From a virus (lineage: Duplodnaviria > Heunggongvirae > Uroviricota > Caudoviricetes), in the IMG/VR virus record IMGVR_UViG_3300029686_000222, positions 1-36,195 of that record: DNA of 36,195 bases; one strand, 5' to 3'. This document shows positions 1 to 36,195 of the stretch, one piece after another. The translations under genes and the position numbers were made by a program. The stretch's first letter is position 1, and each line of letters starts with the position of its first letter. Under the pieces are notes generated by a model that did not search any database, was not told the DNA's origin, and saw only the letters and a list, made by a program, of their open reading frames with translations.

Positions 1-1206
1 ATGTTTGATCCCCAAAAGGTAAATGAAAATAAAGAGGCATTTTTTCTGTATGTGAATGCCAGTGGTGAACTTTCTGCACAAAGTGTTATCAGGGTTGTAG
101 AGAGAGAAGGATTTGTTCAAGGGTATTCTTTGAGTCGTCGTGGTTTTAGGACTTTTCGTAAAGATAGAATCTTGCGAATGTTTGATTCAGAAGCTGCCCT
201 TAATGAGGCTTTTAATGCATGGAATGATGAACCGCCTCTGACTTCCAGTGATTATATTCCTCCCAAGCAATCCACGTCGAAAAACAAATTCTCTATTTGC
301 TTTACTGGGTTTAAACAATCAGATAGGGCGCGGTTAACAGAAATAGCCGTTAATAATAATTTTGATGTGAAAATGGATGTTTCAAAATCGTTATTCATTC
401 TTTGTGTTGGCGATAATAAGGGATGGAGAAAGGTTCAAAAGGCTAACGATTACGGTGCACTTATTCTGAGCGAAGGACAATTCCTGAGTTTTATAGATAC
501 TGGAGAAATACCTTATAAATCTGAAGATATTGGTGATGCTTATCAACAAAATATAGAAAAGGATGTTGAAGCTTGGCAACGTATGGTTGAAGAGTTTTCT
601 TTAACTGTTCGTACGGTGCGGGAACCAAGGCGAAGCACTGCGCTTATAGCAAATTTTTCTGATGGTTTTGCTGTTGGTTGGCGTTTCGCTGTGAAGGAGG
701 TCTTTAAAGAGGCGCTTGATATAAGGCTGACAAAGGTTACTTATGGTGATTACATTTATGAGGTTTGGACGCAAGGTTCCTCTTACCAGTTTCACCAAGG
801 AGATGTATTTTATAGTGACCGTAGTGGTTATGGTTCTTACTCTGAATTTCTACAAAGAGATGATGCAGTTGTCTTACAGGTAAAATATGAATGTTTTTCT
901 GGTTACGATACTGTTTCCTTGTTTGATGGTTCCTTTAGCGGTGAGCTTTCAGTTAATGGGCGCATAGAACCTCGCATTGTTGAGCGTCTTCCTGTTTTAG
1001 TTGAAAGTCAAACCTATGACCCCGGAAAAATTATTGTGGATGTTTTTATCCCCAATGAAAAAAGAAATAAATTAAAATTGTTTGGTGAGTTGTCGATGAA
1101 CCAAGATGATTTTATTTATCTTTTGCAATCCGGATGTTATTGGCAAAAGAAAAAAGGGGAGCGTCCAGAATTGATAAATATTTTCGATGCTATAAAGAAT
1201 ATGTGA
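1..1206 (+). CDS. WYL-domain + BRCT-domain protein with an uncharacterised ~200-aa C-terminal domain (401 aa); possibly N-terminally truncated by the window edge
   Basis: ORF starts at base 1. N-terminus has a WYL-like signature (GFVQGYSLSRRGFRTFRKDRI, resembling the WYL...R-x-FRldRI core). Residues ~95-165 (FSICFTGFKQSDRARLTEIAVNNNFDVKMDVSKSLFILCVGDNKGWRKVQKANDYGALILSEGQF) match the BRCT fold pattern seen in LigA-type BRCT domains. Markedly AT-rich compared with the prophage. Followed by an intrinsic terminator. Confidence 0.6.
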   Translation: MFDPQKVNENKEAFFLYVNASGELSAQSVIRVVEREGFVQGYSLSRRGFRTFRKDRILRMFDSEAALNEAFNAWNDEPPLTSSDYIPPKQSTSKNKFSICFTGFKQSDRARLTEIAVNNNFDVKMDVSKSLFILCVGDNKGWRKVQKANDYGALILSEGQFLSFIDTGEIPYKSEDIGDAYQQNIEKDVEAWQRMVEEFSLTVRTVREPRRSTALIANFSDGFAVGWRFAVKEVFKEALDIRLTKVTYGDYIYEVWTQGSSYQFHQGDVFYSDRSGYGSYSEFLQRDDAVVLQVKYECFSGYDTVSLFDGSFSGELSVNGRIEPRIVERLPVLVESQTYDPGKIIVDVFIPNEKRNKLKLFGELSMNQDDFIYLLQSGCYWQKKKGERPELINIFDAIKNM

Positions 1207-1239
1207 ATTACATCATTGTGAGTGGTCCCAAAAAGAAAA

Positions 1240-1271
1240 CTCGCAGTTTTTACGCTGCGAGTTTCTGCTTT
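1240..1271 (+). terminator. Rho-independent terminator downstream of the WYL-BRCT gene
   Basis: Perfect 7-bp stem CTCGCAG / CTGCGAG with 8-nt loop, followed by TTTCTGCTTT. Confidence 0.6.
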
Positions 1272-1316
1272 GGGATGTGTATAGGGTGCCTTATCAGTCT
1301 TGCCCTGACAACCGAT

Positions 1317-1338
1317 TGACGGGGGATTGCTCCCCCGT
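1317..1338 (-). other. Stem-loop immediately 3' of the hok-like ORF (candidate hok mRNA 3'-terminal hairpin)
   Basis: GACGGGGG-attgct-CCCCCGTC, 8-bp GC-rich perfect stem, 12 nt downstream of the hok-like stop on the minus strand. Confidence 0.3.
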
Positions 1339-1349
1339 CGCGGTTTCCT

Positions 1350-1490
1350 TACTGCTTACACTGTAAGAACGCCGCAAACTCCGCTCCCCAGAAACTCATC
1401 CGTATCTCACACAGCGAACCGTGCAGCATCCAGATGATGAGGATTGCCGTTACGCAGAACGTAATGGCCGTAAGCGATTTTTGCGACATA
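1350..1490 (-). CDS. Hok/Gef-family type I toxin (46 aa): MSQKSLTAITFCVTAILIIWMLHGSLCEIRMSFWGAEFAAFLQCKQ
   Basis: Hand-translated from the minus strand; not in the ORF track because it is shorter than 60 aa. Single N-terminal TM helix, conserved SLCEIR and AAFLxCK motifs shared with HokA/HokB/Gef. AAGGAG Shine-Dalgarno 9 nt upstream of the ATG. Confidence 0.8.
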
Positions 1491-1699
1491 GCGCTTGCTC
1501 CTTTTTCAGGGAGGCGCTAACCTATCACTTGTCTAGGGTAGATGGTTAGGGCCTCGGTTAAACAAAAATGTTTTCCGGGGCCTTTCCACATCCGGCCTTC
1601 AGGTATTCCCTCCAGCCATCAGCCGAAAGGCACCCGCGCGAATTCTAGCCTGGTTTTTTCCCTTGTTTCAATCCGTTGAGGCCTGTCAGCCTTTTGATA

Positions 1700-1777
1700 T
1701 AAAATTCCCGACCGCAGACATTATTCAGTCACGCATTTGATACATGCTTCCGCCGGCGTTCGCGCCGGTTTTTTTTG
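1700..1777 (+). ncRNA. Candidate Sok-like antisense RNA, opposite the hok mRNA leader; 5' end undefined
   Basis: Inferred from hok/sok architecture: a plus-strand intrinsic terminator at 1751-1777 sits upstream (in minus-strand sense) of the hok ORF, where the antisense RNA normally lies. Promoter not confidently identified. Confidence 0.3.
1751..1777 (+). terminator. Rho-independent terminator (plus strand), likely 3' end of the antisense RNA of the hok-like locus
   Basis: CCGGCG-ttcg-CGCCGG stem-loop followed by an 8-T run. Confidence 0.55.
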
Positions 1778-2007
1778 TCCTGTTGCTGCGTAGATCGTCA
1801 TGTGCGATCGATGCGCTGTATTGATCCTTTTTTCAGTTTAATTTTGACTCTTAATTTTACGCAGGCCGCGCCGCGTCTGGCTTCGTTGTTTGACGATTTT
1901 TTGATGCGATCCTTTCGTGATCGTGTCTCATCTCACGTAAAGCATGAAAACTCTTTTAATATCATACAGTTTTATTGCTCCTGCCATTTATGGGATCGTA
2001 AAAACCT

Positions 2008-2317: not shown

Positions 2318-4015
2318 TCAGGCGATAATGTCGCCGTATTTTTCGCGCAGACTCGTCGCCTGCAGGGCATCTGCGGCAAGTTCGCCGCTGTTCATTGGCG
2401 TGCCTGTGTTGCTATGGGTGTGGTTTGCTGTATGTGTGGCCAGCAATTGAATCAGATCCAGAATATCGATCAGCAACGTCAGCAGGTTAAGCCCGGACTT
2501 TTCCCGCGAGCCGCCGCGACCAATAAATACTGTCGGGGAGGTAAACTCCAGACCGCCGTCCGCCCTGCATGTTCTGCGGCCTCCCACGTTTTCGGTGAGG
2601 TCATGCTCAATGGTGGATATCGCCCCTTTGAGTTGAGTCAGCAAATCCTGCGCTACCATCTGGATATGCTCACCGGCTGCGATCGCATAATTGCCGGTAG
2701 TAAGGTGTTCTGTCTGGCCTGTCATCAGCTTACTGGTGCCAAGAACACTGGTTATGTCGTTTGCCTGGACTGTTGTTGTTCTGGTTGTTGTTGTGCGTTC
2801 TTCCTGATCGCTGTTAATGGTTCGCCTGGCTGAATGCTCCCTGATTTGCTGGTCAGTTTCTCTGTGCCAGCTTCCGTCAGTCGTGACGCGCTGAAACACT
2901 TCTGCGCGCTGTTGCTGCAGTTGTTCGCCGGGCTTTACATCAGGCAGGTTATGGCCCGCGGGTAAGATTTGCCTGATGACAGGTTTATCCGGTCGCCCTT
3001 CAATGTTGGATATTTCCACGATGGTGCCTGCCGGCGGGTAGGCAAAACATCCCGCCTCGCTACCTGCCATCGGGACGGGGAGTGGTACTGCCGGATAAAC
3101 AGGCGTATCGCTTTTATCGTTGCCGTTCTCATCAAGCAGTTGCACATCGACGGCGTAGCGTGGGCGGAAGCTGTCGGCAATATCGCCTAGGGTGACGGAT
3201 TCCGTTGGGGCAATGACGCGCGCCAGCCGGGTATGCAGAGTGCCGCTGGCCAGTTCCGGGAACTGTGTTTCCATCTGTCTGCGTAATGGTGATTTGGAAA
3301 CAGGGCTACCCGTGGCGGTAAGGCGTTCCCATGTCAGGGTCATTTTCTCGTTGTTGAGGGCTACACGGGTAATGCGCCCGGCCGGAAGGTTCACGCCCGG
3401 CCGCACAGTTTCCATAAACATGATGTCGATGCTGTTTCCGCCGCTTTGCCCGAGTGTGTACTGTTGCGGAATATCCGGCATGGTAATACTGGCAAACCGT
3501 GAATCCGGTGCGCTTCCCACAAATACGGAACCGTCCGGCATTGGATGCCAGACGTAATCGCTGATACTGAATGCTCGCCCCAGCTGGCTGAGCAGTTGTG
3601 CTCCGCTGCCGCTGTGGGTGATGTAAGGTGTCGGTGTGCTGACGTAATCCGCATCTGGCGTGATGAAAACGATGCCGCTTTGTTTACCCAGATTATCGAG
3701 TACATCCCGTAACGTTGGATGTTGCATGGAGCAGGGGAAATCAAAATCCAGCACGGCAGCTGCTTCACGGATAAAAAGGCGGCGTGAGCCATTTTCGGCG
3801 GGTTGATCGCGCTCAATGTAGCCGGAGAAATAGCGCCATGCCTCACCATTACGGCCGAGATCAATTTGTATCATTGCGCCGGCAAGGCTTTTTTCCGGTG
3901 ACAGATTATTAACAGAAATGAAGCCGCGACCGGCAGCATTCAGGGTAAGGACAAGGCTGATATCGGCAATTTCCGCCAGCTCGCCATTAATCATGCAACG
4001 TTGGATTAATTTCAT
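2318..4015 (-). CDS. Large central tail spike / hub-spike protein (gpV/VgrG-like), 565 aa
   Basis: Last gene of the tail operon, ATGA-coupled to the upstream gene, AGAGGAAGGG RBS. Internal motif PPAGTIVEISNIEGRPDKPVIRQ resembles the gpV/gp5 OB-fold signature; C-terminal HTANHTHSNTGTPMNSGEL resembles the HxH apex of P2 gpV. The ~320-aa N-terminal domain is of unknown type. Confidence 0.6.
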   Translation of the reverse strand: MKLIQRCMINGELAEIADISLVLTLNAAGRGFISVNNLSPEKSLAGAMIQIDLGRNGEAWRYFSGYIERDQPAENGSRRLFIREAAAVLDFDFPCSMQHPTLRDVLDNLGKQSGIVFITPDADYVSTPTPYITHSGSGAQLLSQLGRAFSISDYVWHPMPDGSVFVGSAPDSRFASITMPDIPQQYTLGQSGGNSIDIMFMETVRPGVNLPAGRITRVALNNEKMTLTWERLTATGSPVSKSPLRRQMETQFPELASGTLHTRLARVIAPTESVTLGDIADSFRPRYAVDVQLLDENGNDKSDTPVYPAVPLPVPMAGSEAGCFAYPPAGTIVEISNIEGRPDKPVIRQILPAGHNLPDVKPGEQLQQQRAEVFQRVTTDGSWHRETDQQIREHSARRTINSDQEERTTTTRTTTVQANDITSVLGTSKLMTGQTEHLTTGNYAIAAGEHIQMVAQDLLTQLKGAISTIEHDLTENVGGRRTCRADGGLEFTSPTVFIGRGGSREKSGLNLLTLLIDILDLIQLLATHTANHTHSNTGTPMNSGELAADALQATSLREKYGDIIA

Positions 4016-30245: not shown

Positions 30246-30611
30246 TTACTTCGTCATACCGTCCAGAGTGTCACGGCAAACGGTAGCCAGCCGCTGAATT
30301 TCCAGCACGGTGTCTTCTGTGTCGGCATAGCGATGTGTGATGCGGATGCTGTCTGCAATCACATCGACGATCGCAGAGGATGGGCACTGGTAAATGCCAA
30401 TAACGGACGGGGTGCCGCCTTCAATGCGGTAAAGCCTGTAATTTCCCTCGTGGCTGTCAATCATGTAGCGGCCATCAATAACAATCTTTCCGTCAGCGAG
30501 CTGCGGTACAGGCAGGGATTTCAGGTACATGTCATAACGGTCACGCACGCGAACGGCAAGATCGCGCTCTGTGTTCATCAGCCAGTCAATAAAGTTTTCT
30601 GCGAGAATCAT
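30246..30611 (-). CDS. Hypothetical early protein (121 aa), translationally coupled to gene A
   Basis: AAGAGG RBS; its stop overlaps the A start. Confidence 0.5.
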   Translation of the reverse strand: MILAENFIDWLMNTERDLAVRVRDRYDMYLKSLPVPQLADGKIVIDGRYMIDSHEGNYRLYRIEGGTPSVIGIYQCPSSAIVDVIADSIRITHRYADTEDTVLEIQRLATVCRDTLDGMTK

Positions 30612-30683
30612 TGCGGCAATCCTCTTGTTACAGATGTGCGAAGGCCTCCCGCCGCAAGGTGCAGGAAAGGCCCGGAACCAGAA

Positions 30684-30914
30684 TTAATGGAGTTTGTTTT
30701 GCTGCTGGATGAGCTGTTGAAGCTCGTACAAATCATCCGCCAGATAGCTAAAAACAGAGGCGGAATAAGTGTTTGATAGCGCATGACTGCGTTCATGCAG
30801 CATATTGATGTGCATGATTTGCGCGACGCGTGATGCGCGGAAAAGTCTGCGGTTGATTTCAGTCTGGATGTGACGACGCTCCGCGATAGCGCGGTGCTGT
30901 TTGCGGTTTGCCAT
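30684..30914 (-). CDS. Hypothetical small basic protein (76 aa)
   Basis: ATG with AGAGAGG RBS; overlapped by a longer low-complexity ORF in another frame that was rejected. Confidence 0.45.
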   Translation of the reverse strand: MANRKQHRAIAERRHIQTEINRRLFRASRVAQIMHINMLHERSHALSNTYSASVFSYLADDLYELQQLIQQQNKLH

Positions 30915-31093
30915 GGTGTGGCCTCTCTGTTAGTCAGTTTTGAAAACTCACCATCCAGAGGTTCCAAGCTCGGGGTGGTGAGACGCACAGGGTTGGAACT
31001 ACCGGCTAACAGAGGACCCGGCCCAGCTGATGCTGGCCCTGTACGCCCCACCATAATTCGTGTGCGAAAAAGACATGGCGATACGGTACGCAC

Positions 31094-31114
31094 AAAAAAA
31101 CCGCTGGCGCGGTT
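31094..31114 (-). terminator. Weak candidate intrinsic terminator within the early-region intergenic gap
   Basis: Minus-strand AACCGC-gcca-GCGGTT followed by TTTTT; 6-bp stem only. Confidence 0.3.
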
Positions 31115-31234
31115 GTGCGCTCTGTTAGTCTGCGGGGTTCCAATCCCGGCACCCGTTTTATGAGATGCAGCGGAAATGTAACCTGACTGATTGCGGCATG
31201 GCAAGCGGTTTTTTTGTGTGTGCATGATGATTAC

Positions 31235-35133: not shown

Positions 35134-35199
35134 CGGTTCACCAGGCATTTATTTCCCAGAGCTGTGATCAAGATGATGTTTTCATTGGAGGGCTTCCTT

Positions 35200-36195
35200 A
35201 TGTCGATTAAGAAGCTCGCTAATGGCAAATTTTGTGTGGACGTGCGGCCAGCTGGATCAGAAGGAAAAAGATTCAGGCGGCGATTTGATACTCGTGGTGA
35301 GGCTGTTTTGTATGAGCGTCATGTATTGCAGCATTACCACGACAAAGACTGGGTTGATAAGCCAACAGAACGGCGCTCGCTGAGGGAGTTGCTGGATTGT
35401 TGGTGGCTATACCACGGGAAAAATCATCCTTACGGTGCGATGGAGCGAGTGCGTATTTCTGCGGTCATTAGTGATCTTGAAAGTATTAATGTTACACGCA
35501 GCGACCAACTTACTCGTAAGAACATAATTAATTATCGGTTATTGTTGCTTAACCGCGGAATAAAACAATCCACGGTTAATCGTTATTGCGCAATGATGAG
35601 TGGTTTCTTCACAAAACTAATTGACGCAGAGGAATATTCTGGGGCTAATCCGTTTCATGATGTGAAAAAACTTAATATCAAACAGCCTGAAATGGCTTAT
35701 TTGTATCATGAAGATATTCCACGATTACTGGAGTTGTTATCTGGTGATGAATTAAAAGCTGTCTTGTTGTGTCTGGCAACAGGTGGAAGATGGAGTGAGG
35801 TTGCAAATATCAAGGGGGAGCATGTTATTAGCGGCAAAGTCATTTTTATGGAAACCAAAAATGGGAAGCGTCGCGTTATACCTATATCGTCAGAACTGGA
35901 GTGCATGATTAAAACAAAGGCCACTGGTCGTTTAATTTATCCAAGTTATGCAGCTGTCAGAGCTGCTATCAGAAAGGTGAGGCCCGATCTTCCTGAAGGG
36001 CAGTCGATACATGTTTTACGGCATACCTTTGCCACTCACTTCATGATTAATGGTGGGAATATCATCACTTTGCAGAGAATACTTGGACATAGCACTATTC
36101 AGCAGACGATGACTTATGCCCATTTTGCACCGGATTATCTACAGGATGCTGTGCGCTTTAATCCTGTGGCTGAGTTGTCCAGATATTGCCCATAA
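35200..36195 (+). CDS. int: Tyrosine integrase, P2 Int family (331 aa)
   Basis: Start at the ATG with GGAG RBS (MSIKKLANGKFCVDVRPAG...). C-terminal catalytic block HVLRHTFATHFMINGGNIITLQRILGHSTIQQTMTYAHFAPDYLQDAV is near-identical in pattern to P2 Int. The stop is the last base of the window. Confidence 0.9.
   Translation: MSIKKLANGKFCVDVRPAGSEGKRFRRRFDTRGEAVLYERHVLQHYHDKDWVDKPTERRSLRELLDCWWLYHGKNHPYGAMERVRISAVISDLESINVTRSDQLTRKNIINYRLLLLNRGIKQSTVNRYCAMMSGFFTKLIDAEEYSGANPFHDVKKLNIKQPEMAYLYHEDIPRLLELLSGDELKAVLLCLATGGRWSEVANIKGEHVISGKVIFMETKNGKRRVIPISSELECMIKTKATGRLIYPSYAAVRAAIRKVRPDLPEGQSIHVLRHTFATHFMINGGNIITLQRILGHSTIQQTMTYAHFAPDYLQDAVRFNPVAELSRYCP

Follow-up and report, generated by a model that had tools for sequence, protein, structure and literature searches.

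The locus examined here raises two linked questions: whether DNA near one end of a prophage that an open reading frame (ORF) track shows as empty holds a hok/sok-type toxin-antitoxin module, and how such a module could be controlled when no mok frame overlaps hok. In plasmid R1 the overlapping mok frame has been reported to be essential for Hok translation. Throughout, the window means the whole stretch of viral DNA that was analysed (36,195 nt).

The hok gene and its product

The hok coding sequence occupies positions 1349-1489 of the minus strand (ATG start, 141 nt, 46 aa plus stop, as given in the ORF listing) and encodes the peptide MSQKSLTAITFCVTAILIIWMLHGSLCEIRMSFWGAEFAAFLQCKQ. The original prediction had placed a 46-aa Hok/Gef ORF at 1350-1490 on this strand; the ORF and its family are correct, but the coordinates were one base off. 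The peptide scores 29.9 bits against the Pfam HOK_GEF profile (PF01848; cut-off 22, E 4.1e-7), enough for assignment to the family and well beyond chance, with residues 7-44 aligned to profile positions 5-42 of 42. It also matches PHROG 251 ('MokW-like host killing') with an E value of 1.3e-22. Hok peptides were recognised by a length of about 50 aa, an N-terminal hydrophobic helix, the motif (S/D)LCE and, towards the C terminus, a further Cys or editable Tyr; the window peptide, at 46 aa, has this layout, its SLCE and C-terminal Cys aligning with those of HokA. Indeed, the closest characterised toxin is HokA of E. coli K-12, which is 43% identical over its full length and has in common with window Hok the M-x-Q-K start, the WM(I/L)...SLCE core, the AAFL-x-CK end and both cysteines, which are hard-coded. 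The HokA equivalog NF007290 is likewise the best NCBIfam match, but at 34 bits it falls short of its cut-off of 89, so we describe the toxin as HokA-like and not as HokA. The 'MokW-like' labels of phage records had suggested that the locus is hokW-sokW of the Stx2 prophage Sp5. We rejected this identification: HokW is a 51-aa toxin of the HokD-like cluster (35_712) and only 31% identical to window Hok. As HokW, the protein that has been characterised, falls in another cluster, the label of PHROG 251 is misleading. A literature search for mokW turned up only unrelated papers.

At the protein level the window does not differ from a known toxin. Peptide 72_1621 of Hok 'cluster 72' in the 2026 bioRxiv preprint of Escalera-Maurer et al. 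(10.1101/2025.08.07.668861) is identical to window Hok. The preprint lists cluster 72 as high-abundance and describes the cloning of 72_1621 in pAZ3 (LRP137) for a toxicity assay; the Stx-phage variant 72_1589 is the copy adjoining lom. It reports that 42 of the 45 homologues tested were toxic and names 19_179, 60_1482 and 69_1540, but not 72_1621, as non-toxic. By its own account, Mok, Sok and mRNA structure were expressly outside the analysis, so that the RNA anatomy and the mok loss at this locus are absent from it.

The gene is also widespread. The exact peptide is present on at least 1000 public contigs, where it is named Hok/Gef family protein, and the module is found in 1750 of 5426 complete E. 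coli genomes (about a third), with ~2980 copies in total. In a spread sample, 39 of 40 DNA matches overlie an annotated intact hok CDS; a search for a second hok copy within the window found none. The locus had been called unannotated, which holds for the ORF track from which that was judged; however, the same 141-nt CDS is already annotated in RefSeq ('Hok/Gef family protein') and in phage records. A profile search of genome contigs gave 6 loci, several with doubtful organism labels, and contigs assigned to Planococcaceae, Vagococcus and Xanthomonas, 72-98% identical to the E. coli peptide, are probably contamination and were kept out of the taxonomy. The locus is therefore a known one, a common prophage hok/sok module with a catalogued toxin, and the sole oddity of this copy is the lost overlapping mok.

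Several patterns of substitution indicate that hok is under purifying selection. Nine residues (G24, C27, E28, A39, A40, L42, Q43, C44 and K45) are invariant in all 22 clade members compared, a set that spans three genera (E. coli, Salmonella and Klebsiella), and dN/dS against distant clade members is 0.09-0.43. The window and phage Chuche, whose modules are 91% identical and of the same leader type, differ in hok by 5 synonymous and 0 non-synonymous changes, a split with a neutral chance of ~0.0004.

Prophage setting

With genes for an integrase, a gpA-like replication protein, terminase, tape measure and baseplate protein, the window looks like a complete temperate myovirus-type prophage of ~36 kb. 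No close relative of the phage body emerged from a megablast against INPHARED, which gave short patches only. The module lies at the far end from the integrase, 1.3 kb from the prophage terminus; it follows the late tail genes on the same strand and adjoins a cargo gene with a BRCT domain. It is carried as a moron. In P2-like, Xuanwuvirus and Stx phages, related modules occupy prophage ends or moron positions; others are found beside non-phage cargo (Phd/Fic, in Klebsiella) and as tandem copies in Salmonella. The module marks mosaic joints at prophage cargo positions: the breakpoints of homology with different relatives fall within the hok promoter (between −35 and −10, ~1647-1659) and just beyond the 3' element or the terminator. 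PADLOC had no model matching Hok and gave the neighbouring BRCT protein only a 22-bit domain-level match to a candidate system. Judged by position, the module may plausibly stabilise the cargo gene or the prophage end.

Structure of the hok mRNA

The hok promoter (1642-1671, minus strand) consists of a −35 element TTGAAA (1671-1666), an 18-nt spacer and a −10 element TAGAAT (1647-1642), and matches the consensus at 10 of 12 positions in the promoter scan. In all subgroups of alignment A2 the −10 hexamer (TAGAAT, TAGATT or TAAATT) stands at a constant distance from GGGTGCC. A LexA-box-like site was sought near this promoter and none was found. From a predicted start at ~1636 to an equally predicted end at the intrinsic terminator, the mRNA would be ~405 nt long (1229-1636, minus strand). 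The terminator (1229-1265, minus strand; inverted repeat I1) has an 11-pair stem followed by CTTTTT. Its rough symmetry means that transcription of the plus-strand gene at 1-1206 could end there too. Other terminators are found in the relatives whose homology stops at 1281.

The hairpins expected of a hok mRNA are borne out by folding. A 410-nt minus-strand RNA folds at −175.6 kcal/mol, compared with −130.8 ± 5.7 kcal/mol for shuffles (z = −7.9), with its two ends paired to each other. Among 42 relatives 90.7% of cells in this structure are paired and 37 pairs show changes in both partners; shuffles give 25.2 ± 2.6 such pairs and slid controls 13-20.

The best known model for such an RNA is that of plasmid R1 (hok/mok/sok, parB), whose Hok is 39% identical to window Hok over 31 residues. 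As the work of Gerdes and co-workers established, R1 makes a stable, folded and inert toxin mRNA with mutually exclusive 5' pairings, which is activated by 3' processing and opposed by an unstable antisense RNA. R1 is plasmid-borne, whereas the window module is prophage-borne and without an overlapping mok; nevertheless, counterparts of the R1-type helices can be recognised in the window, supported by coupled covariation and predicted accessibility. The tac-like 5' element GGGUGCCUUUCGGCU (1621-1635, minus strand; inverted repeats I5 and I7) can pair either with a 3' element or with an internal partner. Pairing with the fbi-like 3' element, ...GAUAAGGCACCC (1284-1300, minus strand), closes the full-length mRNA. 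This closing helix contains a perfect 9-nt complement, GGGUGCCUU/AAGGCACCC, 334 nt apart, and extends to 15 pairs in the minimum free energy (MFE) structure; 96% of its cells are paired in the 42 sequences, with 4 compensatory pairs. The compensatory changes are UA to CG (nine times), CG to GC (nine) and GC to AU (eight), between partners ~340 nt apart. Once the 3' element is gone, the 5' element would form a 5' hairpin with the ucb-like internal partner GUGGAAAGGCCCCG (1576-1589, minus strand). This alternative helix appears in the MFE structure both when the first 150 nt are folded alone and when the 3'-truncated RNA is folded; it has 13 pairs, is 96.4% paired and also shows 4 compensatory pairs. 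Columns 80, 81, 83 and 84 of the 5' element covary with both the internal and the 3' partner. On the evidence of the alignment, these mutually exclusive 5' pairings with coupled covariation are the hok refolding switch.

Three further elements complete the fold. The Sok-target hairpin GAGGC...GCCUC (1511-1555, minus strand) presents a 14-nt loop (1540-1527) that contains CUAG; its stem (helix 5) is nearly invariant and aligns with the target hairpin of Rfam RF01794. The predicted probability that the target of the Sok 5' tail is unpaired rises from 0.16 to 0.58 upon 3' truncation. An anti-SD/SD helix (1489-1519, minus strand), in which UAGCGCCUCC (1519-1510) pairs with GGAG...GCGCUA (1501-1489) in the full-length MFE structure, masks the Shine-Dalgarno (SD) sequence of hok (AAGGAG, 1503-1498) together with the A of its AUG; in the 42 relatives, pairing reaches 99.6% in helix 7 of this structure and 95.8% in helix 8. 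Directly past the hok stop codon lies a 3' UTR hairpin, GACGGGGGAGCAAUCCCCCGUC (1317-1340, minus strand; inverted repeat I6; helix 17), which is 98.7% paired with 5 compensatory pairs and, by analogy with the R1 paradigm, is likely to act as a barrier to 3' trimming.

At gathering thresholds an Rfam scan of the whole window, the check that the original prediction had proposed, reports no hok/sok RNA, and only C4 and isrK elsewhere. A permissive scan does give a match to the hok-leader model RF01794, at 1476-1635 on the hok strand (46.2 bits, E 5.5e-9 in a 1-kb search): the match covers the full model length with the expected position and strand, but lies below the gathering score of 59. All five clade copies examined in this way score 33-57 bits, likewise under 59, compared with 118 and 110 bits for K-12 hokC and hokB, which align with the same geometry. 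Further traits shared with K-12 hokB and hokC are GGGUGC at the mRNA 5' end, the GAGGC...GCCUC target hairpin and GGCACCC near the 3' end. The assignment as a hok/sok-like type I toxin-antitoxin locus stands, because the Pfam threshold is passed, the closing helix and the alternative 5' hairpin covary and the RF01794 match falls in place. Since the Rfam sok model at its threshold misses the whole clade and small-ORF tracks miss the toxin, prophage annotations can be expected to show 'empty' DNA here as a matter of routine.

The leader reading frame

The window has no mok frame that overlaps hok, stops being present at −112, −46 and −19. What it does have is the 24-codon leader ORF MWKGPGKHFCLTEALTIYPRQVIG (1517-1591, minus strand), in the hok frame and preceded by GAAGG (1600-1596). 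It ends at a UAG (1519-1517; −30 to −28 relative to hok) 27 nt ahead of the hok ATG. On both points the initial reading of the sequence was right. By comparison, K-12 mokA is annotated as an in-frame extension that ends at the stop codon of hokA, whereas the window leader ORF is cut by the UAG before it reaches hok. In K-12 hokB and hokC the mok AUG is part of the Sok-target loop, 8-10 nt in from the 5' end of Sok and 7-8 nt past GAGG; the window has CUA there, and in the alignment no clade member has a start codon at this canonical position.

The leader UAG is part of the anti-SD/SD helix, by which the hok start site is masked. It is invariant, and is at the same time the complement of the predicted Sok −10 element. 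Loss of the 3' element raises the predicted probability that the leader AUG is unpaired from 0.06 to 0.63.

Leaders vary across the clade. An ATG-started ORF that overlaps hok and begins further upstream is present in 59 of the 101 clade copies examined (~58%). The leader AUG of the window is found in all E. coli-type copies of A2 and in the E. albertii copy, and is missing from the Klebsiella copy and from five of six sequences derived from Salmonella enterica, the sixth having just a short leader ORF that ends far upstream. E. coli members share an SD and AUG ~102 nt upstream, from which the frame drifts freely through 1-nt indels. The absence of the AUG in Salmonella and Klebsiella copies and the frame-shifting indels in E. 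coli copies rule out the 24-aa leader ORF as a conserved peptide. Since the AUG is missing in part of the clade, translation of the leader cannot be a universal requirement; and since Salmonella and Klebsiella copies without it keep the Hok peptide at dN/dS 0.09-0.29, the clade appears to be independent of canonical mok. Preprint 10.1101/2025.08.07.668861 describes translation of Mok as coupled to that of hok. We put forward, as a view that we hold less likely than not, that cluster-72 hok loci use no canonical Mok, and that Hok may be unlocked by a ribosome that reaches the anti-SD helix in any frame, or by refolding alone.

The predicted Sok RNA

A putative Sok promoter lies on the plus strand at 1495-1523 (−35 TTGCTC, 1495-1500; 17-nt spacer; −10 TAACCT, 1518-1523). 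It is weak, with 3 of 6 matches in each hexamer, and the promoter scan reported no plus-strand promoter in 1490-1530. Its placement relative to the hok SD and the target hairpin is that of the annotated sokB promoter (TTGCCG-17-TAAGAT-7-G). The complements of its hexamers, AGGTTAG and GAGCAAG, show little or no variation in A2, a conservation that can also be explained by their overlap with the anti-SD helix. Some Salmonella members carry the −10 variant TATCCT, which is nearer consensus.

By positional homology to K-12 sokB and sokC, we predict a Sok RNA of ~62 nt encoded at 1531-1592 of the plus strand. It would comprise a free 5' tail GUCUAGGGUA (GUCUAGGGUAGAUGG in the centroid structure), a hairpin at 1548-1584 and the tail UUUCCACAUC, ending after the hairpin as the annotated sokB and sokC suggest; the predicted fold has −24.9 kcal/mol (z = −4.1). 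Its 5' end would be 42 nt upstream of the hok ATG. The annotated K-12 RNAs of 57-59 nt have the same layout, with the −35 element over the hok SD and starts 49 nt (sokC, 59-nt RNA) and 48 nt (sokB, 57-nt RNA) upstream. A plus-strand terminator for Sok had been part of the original prediction, and the plus strand has candidate sites at 1317-1340 and 1752-1769, but both are in the wrong place to end Sok: the first is the conserved hok 3' UTR hairpin and the second lies outside the conserved module, and both were rejected in this capacity.

Proposed mechanism and alternatives

Our best explanation, to which we give a probability of roughly 85%, is a type I toxin-antitoxin module of the hok/sok family with a HokA-like cluster-72 toxin, carried near a prophage end beside BRCT cargo; the mechanism we propose runs through the following steps. 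The strong σ70 promoter would produce the predicted ~405-nt hok mRNA. Pairing of 1635-1621 with 1300-1284, a structure that covariation shows, would close the full-length RNA and keep the Sok target, the leader AUG and the hok ribosome-binding site paired, presumably leaving the RNA inert. Slow 3' trimming toward the 1340-1317 hairpin, as in plasmid R1, would then remove the 3' element, whereupon the 5' end would switch to 1589-1576, the alternative helix that covariation likewise shows, and expose both the leader AUG and the hairpin that Sok targets. The short-lived ~62-nt Sok may bind the target loop through its free 5' tail, and this pairing may block leader translation, trigger RNase III cleavage, or both. 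The least certain step is the one that follows when Sok is gone: the 24-codon leader ORF would be translated as far as its UAG and, because this codon lies inside the masking helix, translation would open the hok start site, replacing in this copy the missing overlapping mok. Hok would finally enter the inner membrane and kill or arrest the cell, in keeping with the absence of 72_1621 from the non-toxic homologues that the preprint names, 72_1621 being listed there among the tested ones.

The same parts could have been selected for faster host lysis and phage release at induction, as with hokW-sokW, the only prophage hok with a tested role, namely lysis timing, and that in Sp5 only (PMC8621323). 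In Sp5, mitomycin C removed sokW RNA, HokW appeared ~1 h ahead of the endolysin, and deletion of the locus halved the released phage (PMC8621323). That system is also prophage-borne, with an antitoxin cis-antisense to the 5' UTR (the sokW overlap is 71 nt; PMC8621323), and the window module is found on a complete-looking prophage, downstream of late tail genes on their strand. HokW, however, is a toxin of another cluster, the hok promoter has no LexA-type box nearby, and a function in lysis is not obvious beside Phd/Fic in Klebsiella or in the Salmonella tandem copies. We regard such a role as unlikely.

A second possibility is that the module was selected for superinfection exclusion by abortive infection, an incoming phage shutting off host transcription so that Sok is depleted and Hok released. 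R1 hok/sok was reported by Pecota and Wood in 1996 to exclude T4, and the module has the position of prophage cargo with another cargo gene adjoining. Against this, the PADLOC search gave nothing for Hok beyond the domain-level match of its neighbour, and hok genes are not enriched near defence systems according to 10.1101/2025.08.07.668861. Exclusion seems to us an improbable basis for its selection.

Alternatively, the module could be regulatorily decayed and silent, its intact peptide gene left untranslated without mok, as has been proposed for the chromosomal hok loci of K-12, where IS150 is annotated as interrupting hokA, mokA and sokA. The three stops do close a frame that 59 of 101 clade copies keep, the predicted Sok promoter is weak, and chromosomal hokA, hokB and hokC did not mediate post-segregational killing, as earlier work is summarised in 10.1101/2025.08.07.668861. 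A silent module is nevertheless hard to reconcile with the 5:0 split between window and Chuche, with an RNA architecture kept in its entirety including the anti-SD helix, with a hok promoter so close to consensus, or with the constraint on Hok in the Salmonella and Klebsiella copies that have no leader AUG, and we think decay quite improbable.

It is very unlikely that there is no cis-antisense Sok and that only mRNA folding, antisense read-through out of the 1-1206 gene or some different RNA keeps the toxin mRNA in check: the blank promoter scan, the hexamer conservation confounded by the anti-SD helix, and a plus-strand promoter-like site (1171-1200) from which transcription could leak through the symmetric terminator (1236-1265), cross hok as antisense and end at the strong plus-strand terminator 1752-1769 would all allow it, but the hairpin and 5' tail of 1531-1592 match annotated sokB and sokC in shape, length and position, the Rfam hok-leader model aligns through the Sok region, and the Salmonella −10 variant has moved closer to consensus, not farther from it.

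Implications

As a discovery the module carries little weight, since thousands of genomes already carry an annotation for the toxin and the preprint has catalogued the same peptide and lists it among its tested homologues. Its interest lies in the clade as a natural leader series, which includes an overlapping ORF, a short ORF that ends in the anti-SD helix, and copies with no leader AUG. The toxin is identical or conserved in all these variants, which makes the series suitable for asking how strictly the hok family needs Mok coupling. If our tentative view of the cluster-72 loci is true, overlap-type Mok coupling would be dispensable in a large and actively maintained branch of the hok family.

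The toxin gene is a known and common hok

The hok/sok-like type I toxin-antitoxin locus predicted at 1317-1780 is confirmed as an observation, and the evidence supports its interpretation as hok/sok; it is a very common locus and was known before. Its toxin gene is a 46-codon ORF with an ATG start on the minus strand (1349-1489, one base off the 1350-1490 first proposed), encoding MSQKSLTAITFCVTAILIIWMLHGSLCEIRMSFWGAEFAAFLQCKQ. The peptide matches Pfam HOK_GEF (29.9 bits against a curated threshold of 22, E 4.1e-7) and PHROG 251 (E 1.3e-22), while its top NCBIfam match, HokA, reaches 34 bits, far under the equivalog cut-off of 89. By tblastn, no second hok copy was found in the whole window.

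The exact peptide occurs on at least 1000 contigs of the public protein collection, under the names 'Hok/Gef family protein', 'protein HokA' and UniRef T2HRZ6_ECOLX. With the 379-nt module core (1281-1659) as nucleotide query, matches were obtained in 1750 of 5426 complete E. coli genomes, UTI89, ST131 and O157:H7 included, with up to nine copies per genome. In a sample of 40 matches spanning the whole ranking an annotated Hok/Gef CDS lay under 39, the remaining one being a 53-nt partial match. Phage records carrying the module (Chuche, P88, Xuanwuvirus and Stx phages, where it adjoins lom) are labelled 'MokW-like host killing'. This label is misleading for the cluster's peptide, since the HokW that has been characterised, from prophage Sp5, has 51 aa, is of HokD type and shares just 31% identity with the window's Hok.

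A 2026 preprint catalogues 1264 Hok peptides clustered at 60% identity (10.1101/2025.08.07.668861). The identical peptide is listed in its Table S2 as 72_1621, in a high-abundance cluster, and was cloned as pAZ3::72_1621. Of the 45 homologues tested, 42 proved toxic on arabinose induction, and the three named exceptions are other sequences; the toxicity test suggested with the original prediction has thus in effect been reported already in the text of that preprint. Mok, Sok and the mRNA lie, by its own statement, outside its scope.

The Rfam sok model describes the hok leader

At gathering thresholds Rfam reported no match at the hok locus. At an E-value threshold RF01794 ('sok') matched over its full model length on the minus strand (1476-1635, E 5.5e-9), so that the proposed Rfam scan does find its model in the right place and on the right strand, but with 46.2 bits against a gathering score of 59. 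Calibrated on the K-12 hokC (118 bits) and hokB (110 bits) loci, RF01794 covers the stretch between the mRNA 5' end and the hok ATG on the hok strand, with the annotated sokC and sokB inside its span on the opposite strand; the model therefore describes the hok leader. Five further copies from the clade (Hok cluster 72 of E. coli, E. albertii, Salmonella and Klebsiella) scored 33-57 bits, each under threshold. The clade is thus systematically missed by Rfam, which accounts for the 'empty' look of the locus.

Covariation in the hok mRNA agrees with a refolding switch

A sigma-70 promoter on the minus strand (-35 TTGAAA, 1671-1666; -10 TAGAAT, 1647-1642; 10 of 12 consensus matches) and a predicted intrinsic terminator (1265-1236, minus) delimit a predicted hok RNA of about 405 nt. 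Near its 5' end GGGUGCCUU (1635-1627) is perfectly complementary to AAGGCACCC (1292-1284), and in the minimum-energy fold a 15-pair helix between the RNA ends closes the entire molecule. The fold reaches -175.6 kcal/mol against -130.8 +/- 5.7 in shuffles (z = -7.9). Across an alignment of 42 distinct module copies, taken from E. coli, E. albertii, Salmonella and Klebsiella, pairing in the full structure stands at 90.7%. In it 37 pairs are changed on both sides; column shuffles gave 25.2 +/- 2.6 such pairs, and sliding the partners by 1-3 columns gave 13-20. The closing helix, 96% paired, has four compensatory pairs (UA to CG nine times, CG to GC nine times, GC to AU eight times), and the hairpin directly past the stop codon (1340-1317) has five.

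Folded without the 3' element, the 5' end takes GUGGAAAGGCCCCG (1589-1576) as its partner instead, and 1555-1511 forms a GAGGC...GCCUC hairpin; the alternative 5' hairpin is 96.4% paired on the alignment. Columns 80, 81, 83 and 84 of the 5' element show compensatory changes with this internal partner and with the 3' element alike. Such covariation of the same bases with two mutually exclusive partners is as the refolding pathway of the hok family predicts. For R1 hok mRNA this pathway was reportedly worked out by Gerdes and co-workers. In partition-function calculations, removal of the 3' element raised the mean unpaired probability of the Sok-tail target from 0.16 to 0.58, of the leader AUG from 0.06 to 0.63 and of the hok SD from 0.28 to 0.46, values that agree with a refolding switch.

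The clade lacks a canonical mok start

The original prediction found no overlapping mok-like frame and only a 24-aa upstream ORF; this ORF (1517-1591) is in frame with hok and stops 27 nt before its ATG, and with both ORFs present as described that account was correct. In K-12, mokB begins in the -1 frame, 58 nt before hokB; mokC ends at the stop of hokC and therefore extends it in frame. The two mok start codons are located in the loop targeted by Sok, 8-10 nt inside the Sok 5' end. Where hokB and hokC have this AUG the window has CUA, and no clade member in the 42-copy alignment has a start codon at that position. The window's overlapping frame is shut by stops at -112, -46 and -19, and its hok frame upstream by the UAG at -30 to -28.

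Among 101 clade copies, which are non-independent and mostly retrieved through protein similarity, 59 have an ATG-started ORF (from -130 or -103) overlapping hok, 18 share the window's leader type with the stop 27 nt before the hok ATG, two have a leader ORF ending 16 nt before it and 14 one ending further upstream, and eight (Salmonella, Klebsiella) lack a leader ATG. The absence of mok in the window is thus a variant state within the clade.

When the full-length RNA is folded, the leader UAG (1519-1517) falls within a helix, UAGCGCCUCC/GGAG...GCGCUA, that hides the hok SD and AUG and is 96-99.6% paired across the clade. Given this placement, we propose that termination on the leader opens the hok start; that a ribosome completing the leader ORF would do so is the weakest step of the model.

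A candidate Sok RNA

K-12 sokC (59 nt) and sokB (57 nt) start 49 and 48 nt upstream of the hokC and hokB ATGs, and the sokB promoter (TTGCCG-17-TAAGAT-7-G) has its -35 over the hok SD. At the corresponding position, the plus strand of the window has TTGCTC (1495-1500), a 17-nt spacer, TAACCT (1518-1523) and, after 7 nt, G 1531. Past this G the strand continues with a free tail of 10-14 nt, which is complementary to the target loop, then with a stable hairpin (1548-1584) and UUUCCACAUC. Promoter position, tail and hairpin together give a predicted Sok of about 62 nt at 1531-1592 (-24.9 kcal/mol, z = -4.1), a candidate placed by position. Its hexamers match consensus at only three of six positions each and are absent from the promoter scan output; they are invariant on the 42-copy alignment, a conservation confounded by the anti-SD helix overlapping both.

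The hairpins originally assigned to hok mRNA are present, as are two plus-strand terminator-like sites, neither of which belongs to Sok: 1317-1340 is the hok 3' UTR hairpin, and 1752-1769 falls outside the conserved module, homology with most relatives being limited to about 1659 down to 1281 or 1228.

Back-to-back with the hok promoter, a promoter-like TTGAGG-18-TAAAAT (1676-1705, plus) precedes the strong intrinsic terminator at 1752-1769 with its 8 T; together they would yield a plus-strand RNA of about 65 nt (~1712-1778) outside the conserved module. Over 1676-1778 the hexamers and terminator are near-invariant in seven relatives (one -35 substitution in one relative; T-run length varies) and the body is variable. 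Its fold z is only -1.4 and Rfam gives no match; it may represent a prophage sRNA, or simply serve as a backstop that terminates antisense transcription.

The hok module lies at mosaic joints

The window looks like a gene-bounded temperate myovirus-type prophage of about 36 kb, with an integrase (35164-36195), a baseplate protein (2318-4015), a gpA-like replication protein, large terminase, tape measure and tail fibres; no close relative was found among deposited phage genomes. C4 antisense RNA (76.4 bits, 30971-31058, minus) and isrK (70.2 bits, 31094-31168, minus), adjacent matches at Rfam gathering score, overlap a 205-aa repressor-like ORF (30608-31225), and the region looks like a P1/P7-type antisense immunity element of the prophage.

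The hok gene sits 1.3 kb from the window end opposite the integrase and adjoins a 401-aa BRCT-domain ORF (1-1206, plus), whose product matches PHROG 36782 (unknown function), partially resembles the ligase BRCT domain and, at 22 bits and at domain level only, matches the PADLOC candidate system PDC-S48. In relatives, the 650-nt spacer from hok to the baseplate gene (1660-2318) is ~93% conserved although no gene is annotated there. It includes a near-invariant block of about 200 nt (~2040-2240) with direct repeats (CGGTTTACGTCAC and CGCTTTACGTCAC at 2154-2166 and 2171-2183; GAAAACTGAAAAA at 2012-2024 and 2102-2114), and may be a regulatory or protein-binding region.

A unit of BRCT gene plus hok, 96.9% identical to window 1-1647, occurs in E. 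coli Ec-U9-2, where it is flanked by the host gene ytfP and by the ogr gene of a P2-like prophage, and in STEC316 and relatives the unit of hok, spacer and baseplate gene (1213-2392) adjoins another cargo gene (DUF4875), near flk. Further clade copies are found past ogr, past tail-fibre genes, as tandem pairs, or with YafO or Phd/Fic genes as neighbours; from these varied neighbours we conclude that the module is a mobile cargo element at mosaic joints. Homology with different relative sets breaks at shared points inside the hok promoter (~1647-1659), just past the 3' closing element (1281) and just past the terminator (1213-1228), placing the module at recurrent recombination joints, with the -35 hexamer supplied by flanking DNA. 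Addiction, exclusion and lysis timing are candidate roles for which the module may be selected. No LexA-type box was found near the hok promoter.

Two tandem modules about 490 nt apart occur in Salmonella genomes, each with its own leader and terminator (L096, 1501-1641 and 1991-2131; L097, 1501-1641 and 1995-2135). At Salmonella locus L093 (hok at 1501) the toxin ORF and 3' closing element are kept, but unrelated sequence stands in place of the promoter region and of the 5' GGGUGCC element; the locus may be truncated or rewired. In IMG/VR, dozens of prophage contigs (L014, L016, L020 and many more, length 1641) stop exactly 3 nt past the hok coding match and so lack its 3' UTR, closing element and terminator; predicted prophage borders are thus routinely cut at hok. 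Loci labelled Planococcaceae, Vagococcus and Xanthomonas pisi (L004, L005, L008) carry E. coli-type Hok (72-98% identity), most likely through contamination or mislabelling.

The only findings that go beyond the literature consulted are the RNA anatomy of cluster 72, the absence of a canonical mok start throughout the clade and the loss of any overlapping frame in the window's copy. The window and phage Chuche share the window's leader type and 91% identity across the module, with five synonymous and no non-synonymous differences in hok; against Salmonella and Klebsiella members dN/dS is 0.09-0.29. On these comparisons, purifying selection on the toxin persists whatever the leader state.
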